A program made the position numbers and the translations under genes. This document shows positions 59,103 through 60,086 of a stretch of 64,000 nt of DNA, piece by piece. The notes below the pieces were generated by a model. It saw only the letters and a program-made list of their open reading frames with translations, searched no databases and was not told where the DNA came from. Positions within the stretch are counted from its first letter, which is position 1, and the number at the start of each line of letters is the position of its first letter. The DNA comes from a virus. The stretch lies in the IMG/VR virus record IMGVR_UViG_3300028840_004348; one strand, written 5' to 3'.

Positions 59103-59137
59103 AACTCTTTCTCAACATACAGTGAACAGATCTCTCG
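59103..59137 (-). repeat. Left arm of an about 35-bp imperfect inverted repeat flanking the CRISPR array; contains the promoter-like motif CTGTATGTTGAGA
   Basis: Revcomp of 59103-59137 matches the plus strand at 60052-60086 at 31 of 35 positions. Confidence 0.6.
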
Positions 59138-59154
59138 ATGTCATGGACCGTGCT

Positions 59155-59917
59155 GTCGAGACTTCTAACCCGTCTCGCAGGGATTGAAGGATCGAACTCC
59201 CAAGATCTGGAGGCCCGCGATGCCGAAGTCGAGACTTCTAACCCGTCTCGCAGGGATTGAAGGGCGGTGCGGGTCCTATCATCGCTACTTGGGACATCGG
59301 TGTCGAGACTTCTAACCCGTCTCGCAGGGATTGAAGGAAATGGAGTCCATCGAACCCAACATCGTCGAAATGTCGAGACTTCTAACCCGTCTCGCAGGGA
59401 TTGAAGGTAACTAGACTGAGAATAGCTTGGTTATGTGAAATGCGTCGAGACTTCTAACCCGTCTCGCAGGGATTGAAGAAACGTGTTGAAAACGTGCTAC
59501 GAGCCGGACAACATGTCGAGACTTCTAACCCGTCTCGCAGGGATTGAAGGGAAGCTACCGTCGCCTACGCGACCAGCGAGCCCATCTGTCGAGACTTCTA
59601 ACCCGTCTCGCAGGGATTGAAGGATCGATAGCCGGGCGGCGCACGCCTCCGTTGCGCTGTCGAGACTTCTAACCCGTCTCGCAGGGATTGAAGGCGGAGC
59701 GATCTCGCCGGGCAGTTCGAGCCACAACTCCGGGGGTCGAGACTTCTAACCCGTCTCGCAGGGATTGAAGGCGGTTTTCCGCCTCGGTACCCGAGGTCGG
59801 ATCAAGATGTCGAGACTTCTAACCCGTCTCGCAGGGATTGAAGGGAGTGAAAAGATCGACGCCCTCTCGTGATGCTGCTTCGTCGAGACTTCTAACCCGT
59901 CTCGCAGGGATTGAAGG
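59155..59917 (-). CRISPR. CRISPR array: eleven 36-bp repeats GTCGAGACTTCTAACCCGTCTCGCAGGGATTGAAGG (plus strand), ten spacers of 34-41 bp
   Basis: Repeats at 59155, 59228, 59302, 59372, 59444 (last base G>A), 59515, 59588, 59659, 59736, 59809 and 59882. Spacers are unique. Minus-strand orientation puts the hairpin CGAGAC-GGGTTAGAA-GTCTCG plus AC directly 5' of each spacer. Confidence 0.9.
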
Positions 59918-60051
59918 GGCGCGTTCCGCGACTTCAATGATCGCGGCGAGATAACCACCCGATTTCGAGCGGTCCGTTTTTCGCTCGAACGCGCTCCCGA
60001 TTTTTTCAATCATTTCGAACGATGAACTCCTCCACCGATCCACCGCTCGAA

Positions 60052-60086
60052 AATCGAGAGATCTGTTCACTGCATGTTGTCAAAGA
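60052..60086 (+). repeat. Right arm of the inverted repeat flanking the CRISPR array, between the array and the cas12-like gene's 3' end
   Basis: CGAGAGATCTGTTCACTGCATGTTGTCAAAGAGCTT. Confidence 0.6.

Follow-up and report, generated by a model that had tools for sequence, protein, structure and literature searches.

An inverted repeat around the CRISPR array of a phage Cas12m locus and its possible origin in a duplicated promoter-like element

Organisation of the locus and anatomy of the inverted repeat

The IMG/VR virus record IMGVR_UViG_3300028840_004348 was analysed over a stretch of 64 kilobases (kb) of a phage genome of approximately 188 kb. This stretch is hereafter called the window, and all coordinates are window positions. 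Its subject here is an inverted repeat that encloses a CRISPR array downstream of cas12m, a gene for a Cas12m homologue. All genes of the region are on the minus strand. In the direction of transcription, cas12m (60099–62297; stop codon at 60099–60101) is followed after 8 nucleotides (nt) by the right arm of the inverted repeat (60053–60090), a leader of 135 nt reaching to the first repeat (59918–60052, minus strand), the array (59155–59917, minus strand), a trailer of 15 nt (59140–59154, minus strand), the left arm (59102–59139) and, approximately 100 nt further on, a gene of 445 amino acids (aa).

The 732-aa product of cas12m was recognised as a homologue of type V-M effectors through structure and Pfam matches. 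It matched the PDB entry 23vw_A, annotated as 'CRISPR-associated DNA-binding protein Cas12m' (E = 3.5e-47), Cas12m2 (8hhl; E = 3.4e-11) and the Pfam family PF07282 (Cas12f1-like TNB; 1.1e-13). Eleven identical 36-nt repeats, with the minus-strand sequence CCTTCAATCCCTGCGAGACGGGTTAGAAGTCTCGAC, alternate in the array with 10 spacers 34–41 nt in length; the array is co-oriented with cas12m, as it is in every relative examined. At its minus-strand 3′ end, beside the spacer, the repeat carries a hairpin with the stem GCGAGAC/GTCTCGA; a hairpin at this end of the repeat, next to the spacer, is the orientation of type V CRISPR RNAs (crRNAs). In the nearest relative, the IMG/VR locus L032, Cas12m was 47% identical, the array repeats were alike at 32 of 36 positions and the leader was homologous to that of the window, which contains the conserved element GGACCGCTCGAAATC. 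No signal of a trans-activating CRISPR RNA (tracrRNA) was found, either in the window, where the leader–repeat duplex had a z-score of −0.23 against shuffles, or in five relatives, and an Rfam scan gave no match. Judged by what sequence can tell, namely a Cas12m homologue, a co-oriented array with a 3′ hairpin and no tracrRNA, the locus qualifies as type V-M.

A repeat search placed the arms of the inverted repeat at 59102–59139 and 60053–60090 (minus-strand readings ATCGAGAGATCTGTTCACTGTATGTTGAGAAAGAGTTT and AAGCTCTTTGACAACATGCAGTGAACAGATCTCTCGAT, respectively), each 38 nt long, 913 nt apart and matching at 34 of 38 positions (89%). The inner 20 nt of the two arms (ATCGAGAGATCTGTTCACTG) were identical, and all four mismatches lay within the outer 18 nt; two of the mismatches are compatible with G-U pairing, on the sense RNA only. 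Among inverted repeats with arms within 5 kb of each other, this pair was the best in the 64 kb, all others being at most 34 nt long at 71%–83% identity. The similarity did not extend past 38 nt, since alignment of the outer flanks was at chance level (108 of 500 shuffles were as good). No further copy of the 20-nt core was found in the window at up to three mismatches (0.01 expected by chance). An independently assembled Logan contig of this phage (L002, from SRR6963591) carried both arms with identical bases throughout. Because the core is unique and recurs exactly in a second assembly, the inverted repeat is genuine and did not arise from faulty assembly.

An earlier, sequence-only reading of this DNA had described an inverted repeat of about 35 base pairs (bp), matching at 31 of 35 positions and bracketing the array exactly, 17–18 bp outside the outermost repeats. 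The repeat itself was confirmed, with a match of 34 in 38 instead. The close bracketing was found on the left side only, where 15 nt separate the arm and the last repeat (17 nt for the shorter arm assumed in that reading). On the right, the arm lies upstream of the leader, 135 nt from the first repeat. The coordinates formerly given to the right arm (60052–60086) were off by approximately 4 nt, and the string quoted for it is the reverse complement of 60055–60090.

Motifs of the two arms and the insertion beside the leader

The outer 15 nt of the right arm carry, on the gene strand, the motif TCTKTGACAAY (motif A; TCTTTGACAAC at 60076–60086, minus strand). This motif was common to seven independent phage lineages, the Cas12m proteins of which are just 25%–47% identical. 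In each locus, over up to 21 kb, it occurred exactly once, on the cas12m strand and between the stop codon and the first repeat (window, 60076–60086; L032, 2307–2317; L033, 11810–11820; L042, 11866–11876; L044, 11457–11467; L053, 11248–11258; L054, 10988–10998). In loci with short leaders, it was located 8–23 nt before the first repeat. The 13-mer AGCTCTTTGACAA, which forms the outer half of the right arm on the sense strand, is unique in the window and shared with L001/L033. Because the motif is conserved past the cas12m stop codon and on the cas12m strand in such divergent relatives, the outer part of the right arm is to be read as a conserved sense element pointing into the array, not merely as a degenerate antisense copy. 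The view that the right arm is a degenerate copy of the left-arm motif facing the other way therefore holds in part: a defective copy is present on the opposite strand, but in the inner 23 nt only, and the outer half is the conserved sense sequence. The simplest reading of motif A, given its place next to the array, is that of the array promoter, although it may instead be another array-proximal signal of phage type V-M loci. Within motif A, GACAAT could function like a −10 element; in short-leader loci, transcripts would then begin at the first repeat or immediately ahead of it. The TTGACA of the right arm was also considered as a sigma-70 −35 element and rejected, no −10 element being present at 16–18 nt in the window or in the relatives.

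The left arm carries a different promoter-like motif, which recurs along the phage genome. On the minus strand it contains TGTATGTTGAGA, and the element AGATCT-GTTCAC-TGTATGTT-GAGA (59110–59133, minus strand), presumably serving the downstream gene, belongs to a family of the form GATCY-N5-6-TGTATNTT (motif B). A second member (TGTATATTAACT; 62324–62335, minus strand, with its TGTATNTT copy at 62328–62335) lies 26 nt upstream of the cas12m start codon. In the window, TGTATNTT occurred eight times on the minus (gene) strand and never on the plus strand; 1.16 copies were expected, and none of 100 shuffles reached eight. The sites on the minus strand are at 62335, 59121, 48491, 37707, 23207, 15003, 12909 and 7703. 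At least five of them, including that of cas12m, precede a Shine-Dalgarno sequence and start codon by 13–27 nt. GATCY was found 5–6 nt upstream of TGTAT in four of the eight aligned sites, the left arm among them, against a background of 0.0079 per site, and the site at 12909 (AAGATCCGTTCC-TGTATATT) is very near to the left arm (GAGATCTGTTCAC-TGTATGTT). From the alignment of the eight sites and the similarity to site 12909, the left arm is classed as an ordinary member of the motif-B family over approximately 25 nt, a stretch that covers half of the identical core. The sequence-only reading was thus right that the left arm carries a recurrent motif in minus orientation. The frequency of GATC in motif B could imply a sensitivity to Dam methylation. 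Separately from this family, TTGACA-N17-TATATA at 21780–21818 (minus strand), upstream of a gene, resembles by eye a near-consensus sigma-70 promoter; it was not called by the consensus scanner, position 6 of its second hexamer being A.

The right arm's inner part consists of 23 inserted nt (60053–60075; ATGCAGTGAACAGATCTCTCGAT on the minus strand), which correspond to an inverted copy of the promoter-upstream region of the left arm. When the leader was aligned with that of L032 using MAFFT and two affine-gap pairwise settings, all three alignments placed a gap of 22–24 nt in the L032 leader directly after TTGACAA, beyond which homology resumed; settings that barred a long gap misaligned the shared TCTTTGACAA. 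Both L032 and L033 continue with TTGACAATTTGG at the insertion point, without the 23 nt, and no relative had anything resembling the core. On its inner side, the insertion ends where the inverted repeat does. Outside the insertion, the outer arm halves, GTTGTCAAAGAGCTT and GTTGAGAAAGAGTTT, agree in 12 of their 15 positions. Of the four differences between the arms, three account for the reading TTGACA on the right as against TGTAT..TTGAGA on the left. The fourth, which is the only one within the copied 23 nt, is TGCAT in the right arm versus TGTAT, a change at a T that is invariant in all eight motif-B sites.

For comparison, 27 IMG/VR loci and one locus from a metagenome-assembled genome were collected as Cas12m relatives, and the 18 related loci with arrays were compared for the repeat. 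An inverted repeat between leader and trailer was absent in all 18: comparing the leader region with the 400 nt past the array gave a best score of at most 10, versus 26 here. Flank synteny was found with none of the Cas12m relatives, and the genes flanking the present locus had no relatives in IMG/VR. Since the flanking genes are unrelated between lineages, the mobile or conserved module is taken, on this comparison, to be cas12m plus motif A plus array, which places the right arm inside the module and not at its edge. As far as these loci show, the inverted repeat is neither a general feature of such systems nor the boundary of a cassette. The comparison with related phages suggested by the sequence-only reading thus returned no array-plus-repeat cassette. 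In L002, the flanks are 100% identical to the window, and a single repeat with no spacers lies between intact arms (6167–6428). This form was considered as a natural array-less variant and set aside, since it is most likely a collapse of the k-mer assembly and is uninformative on the gain or loss of a cassette. It could alternatively reflect a population with variable or deleted arrays.

Taken together, we tentatively favour, at somewhat less than an even chance, the reading that the inverted repeat arose when a phage promoter-like element was duplicated in inverted orientation in this lineage alone, and that its symmetry is a by-product without a dedicated function, the arms being independent promoter regions that point the same way. 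In this history, which is parsimonious because the left arm is a native motif-B site and the 23 nt are absent from relatives, the left arm would be the native promoter region of the downstream gene; in L032, the gene after the array likewise has its own promoter-like sequence right after the last repeat. The region upstream of TGTAT, together with TGTAT, would then have been copied in inverted orientation into the leader beside motif A. The outer halves would already have been alike before this event, their similarity of 12 in 15 seeding the switch, so that the insertion was probably produced by microhomology-seeded template switching, and the three outer differences would be ancestral ones between motif A and the flank of motif B. 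In each arm, only the motif oriented along the genes would have stayed intact, A for the array and B for the next gene, which suggests that the arms work separately. As an unavoidable side effect, transcripts crossing the whole array would have complementary ends of 20–38 nt. The earlier suggestion of a duplication involving promoter-like elements is in line with this, in that the arms appear to be related by copying and each includes such an element.

Quasipalindrome template switching is an established mutational mechanism, in which adjacent sequence is copied in inverted orientation and an imperfect inverted similarity is extended. As in that process, the edge of the insertion here coincides with the edge of the new repeat. 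Classical cases, in contrast, are of hairpin scale, whereas the partners here are 186 nt (in the single-repeat form) to 913 nt apart. Because of this distance, a long-range or intermolecular switch would be needed.

Several points weigh against this interpretation. A scan for the sigma-70 consensus found no site at either arm, and the promoter status of motifs A and B is drawn solely from their position, strand bias and conservation. The motif of the left arm lies 103–118 nt from its start codon, much farther than the other copies lie from theirs. The chance similarity of 12 in 15 that the history requires is a priori unlikely, at an estimated ~2e-3. Furthermore, a perfect inverted core of 20 nt adjoining both motifs would also be expected of a selected RNA stem or a shared operator. 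This phage is also a singleton, whose downstream gene lacks homologues and whose repeat is carried by no close relative, so that selection on the core, if any, would not show by comparison.

Alternative explanations of the symmetry

If the array-spanning sense transcripts paired at their ends, over 20 bp (the perfect core) to 38 bp, the leader and array would be looped out as by an RNA clamp. RNase III might then free the pre-crRNA from the cas12m and downstream transcripts, or the stem might shield the precursor from exonucleases. Both cores would be present in every sense transcript that is initiated at motif A, or upstream of it, and continues past the array. The inverted copy is on the transcribed side of motif A, and the left core starts 15 nt past the last repeat. 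No terminator beyond chance expectation was found from cas12m through the array and left arm to the downstream gene, from which co-transcription is presumed. When the sense RNA of 1004 nt was folded, the minimum-energy and centroid structures each paired the arms, and the confinement of the mismatches to the outer 18 nt, with G-U compatibility of two of them on the sense RNA only, would suit such a stem. Perfect duplexes of 20 bp or more are typical RNase III substrates. The arms provide a perfect core of 20 bp, which extends to 38 bp by way of two G-U pairs and a 2 × 2 internal loop, and it is therefore plausible that the pre-crRNA would be excised or stabilised. RNase III stems flank the 16S and 23S rRNA in ribosomal RNA (rRNA) operons, where they are conserved and covarying. 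The present arrangement resembles them in that long-range complementarity brackets a non-coding RNA within a longer transcript; unlike them, it is absent from all relatives, and neither conservation nor covariation supports it. With no stem in any of the 18 related arrays, the system evidently does not need one. Moreover, the mismatches cluster to an extent barely beyond chance (p ~0.04–0.1), and a composite origin of the right arm explains this equally well. On balance, a role of the stem in RNA processing may be entertained, but we consider it doubtful.

A shared operator would act on the DNA instead. A factor recognising the core, either the reader of B-type promoters or the neighbouring helix-turn-helix protein, would bind at both arms, and the copy beside motif A would subject the array promoter to the control that also acts on the downstream gene. 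The core does adjoin both motifs, with 0–4 nt between it and TGTAT in the left arm and motif A immediately ahead of it in the right, and it holds the palindrome AGATCT, part of the upstream element of motif B, at the sites of which GATCY is enriched. The downstream gene (57654–58991, minus strand) encodes 445 aa from an ATG with a Shine-Dalgarno sequence, or 450 aa from an ATG at 59006. Its product matched, in the C-terminal part, the Pfam families HTH_Crp_2 (E = 0.0013) and HTH_17 (E = 0.0063), and also PHROG 66, 'excisionase and transcriptional regulator' (E = 2e-4); no homologue besides itself was found in a set of 5.8 billion proteins. L002 additionally encodes a Crp-type helix-turn-helix protein upstream of cas12m. 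However, both Pfam matches are below curated cut-offs, no regulator gene is conserved beside cas12m in the relatives, the core of 14–20 nt has no other copy in the 64 kb, and its palindrome of just 6–10 bp is at chance level for a 20-mer. An operator would also have no need of the inverted orientation. Co-regulation of this kind is therefore possible but unlikely.

The plus strand of the right arm (AGATCT-GTTCAC-TGCATGTT) might alternatively be an antisense promoter firing into the 3′ end of cas12m and damping both cas12m and read-through into the array. This copy keeps GATCY, the spacing and six of the seven specified bases of TGTATNTT. The changed base (T to C) is nevertheless invariant in all eight copies, so that the antisense copy is probably weakened by the change from TGTAT to TGCAT, and the window has no B motif elsewhere on the plus strand. 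In addition, cas12m itself appears to have a B-type promoter, and the two would fire together. Antisense control is accordingly improbable.

Two further explanations treat the enclosed DNA as a movable unit. Recombination between the 20-bp cores could flip the 913-bp leader and array and switch crRNA production on and off in a phase-variable manner. Arms of 38 bp with an identical core of 20 bp, ~0.9 kb apart, have the geometry typical of invertons, and motifs A and B, situated in the outer arm halves, would stay in place on inversion. The resemblance is to known invertons such as the Mu G segment (10.64898/2026.02.14.705889), hin and fimS, in which inverted repeats flank a segment of ~1 kb, here too in a phage genome. 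Unlike in these systems, no recombinase was found nearby (no such domain among 31 neighbours with precomputed Pfam hits or in PHROG scans of neighbours, which cover part of the ~188-kb genome), and the promoter-like motifs are in or outside the arms, not inside the segment. Only one orientation was seen, the same in both assemblies (the reference junction reads CTCAACATACAGTGAACAGATCTCTCGATGTCATGGACC, and inversion would give CTCAACATACAGTGAACAGATCTCTCGATTTTCGAGCGG), and the repeat is not conserved in relatives. We hold inversion to be very unlikely. Lastly, the arms might be the terminal inverted repeats of a mobile cassette or a miniature inverted-repeat transposable element that brought in the array, given that an inverted-repeat pair encloses a non-coding unit. 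There is no target-site duplication, the 8-nt flanks (TTTTCCAC and TCGAACTT) being unrelated, and the arms are least alike at their outer termini. Further copies were found neither in the window nor in IMG/VR, and metagenome contigs gave a single unrelated coding match attributable to chance. The right arm would moreover split cas12m from its own array, a module that is intact in 18 relatives. The recombination footprints of an acquired cassette that the sequence-only reading had proposed are thus not borne out, and this explanation is largely refuted, with hardly any probability left to it.

Related systems and implications

In the leader, a second conserved motif, C(C/G)(C/T)CTCG(C/A)AA, was observed at 59962–59976 (minus strand; GGACCGCTCGAAATC) and also in the leaders of L032, L037, L043, L044 and L052–L055. 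It is the 3′ half of a repeat-like hairpin (TTCGAGCG-N10-CGCTCGAA) and its position relative to motif A varies by lineage, being downstream in some and upstream in the rest. The fold of the leader had a z-score of −2.79; a conserved RNA structure was rejected, the consensus fold of four sequences being weak (−2.3 kcal/mol). Other candidates in and around the array were likewise discarded. A tracrRNA-like anti-repeat in the leader (TCTCGCCGCGATCATTGAAG, resembling the 5′ part of the repeat in reverse complement) had a duplex energy no better than that of shuffles in the window and five relatives. A crRNA-like guide following the conserved leader hairpin gave a single seed match of 11 nt, inside a gene at ~6531, which is at chance level. 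As for self-targeting, none of the spacers matched the window outside the array or any related locus.

A terminal crRNA with an autoregulatory role was considered as well. Standalone repeat-like regulatory RNAs (Shmakov et al., 10.1101/2023.03.03.530964) are comparable in being non-array elements near a cas gene and array that might regulate the locus, and here a pseudo-guide made up of the last repeat and trailer would have 20 nt in common with the right arm. In contrast to such RNAs, the match is at positions 16–35 of the pseudo-spacer and not in the seed proximal to the protospacer-adjacent motif (PAM), and leader–repeat complementarity is at the level of shuffled sequence. The candidate was rejected because the 15 PAM-proximal nt are unmatched, which does not fit the seed rules of type V.

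Cas12m has been described to bind DNA and silence transcription without cleaving (PMC11013384, PMC10442227). A preprint of September 2026 (10.64898/2026.09.14.751636) presented a 610-aa example from a myxophage as the first Cas12m of a phage. In our collection, Cas12m homologues beside an array were common on large viral contigs of up to 245 kb (27 IMG/VR loci; L004–L030 and L032–L058), and judging from these loci, phage Cas12m systems are widespread in large phages. In one of them (L001, 6841–9300, which equals L033; IMG/VR contig 3300036761_001580), the array comprises more than 35 repeats in several sequence variants with compensatory changes in the stem (GGGA/TCCC versus GAGAC/GTCTC), a heterogeneity unusual for a single array. 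The present locus resembles type V-M loci in having a Cas12m-like effector followed by an array on the same strand with 36-nt repeats bearing a 3′ hairpin, in the lack of a tracrRNA signal and in that no adaptation genes were seen nearby. It differs from them in being borne by a large phage, in its longer effector (732 aa) and in the location of the array inside a private inverted repeat of 38 bp.

In a full-text literature search, no CRISPR array was found described as lying between inverted repeats; the closest analogues are the processing stems of rRNA operons, invertons and the products of quasipalindrome template switching. If the symmetry were functional, whether as a clamp, an operator or a switch by inversion, control of a CRISPR array's expression by a flanking inverted repeat would be seen here for the first time, and the setting would be a phage-borne, transcription-silencing Cas12m, a class just now being reported from phages. 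On the likelier reading, that of inverted copying, the locus would be a clear natural example of the duplication of a promoter region. In either case, the inverted repeat is a real but private feature of this phage and modest in itself. The main value of the analysis may lie in its by-products, the conserved array-proximal motif and the phage promoter-like family GATCY-N5-6-TGTATNTT, which are arguably more useful than the repeat. TCTKTGACAAY, being common to divergent phage Cas12m loci, could be used to find and orient such arrays.

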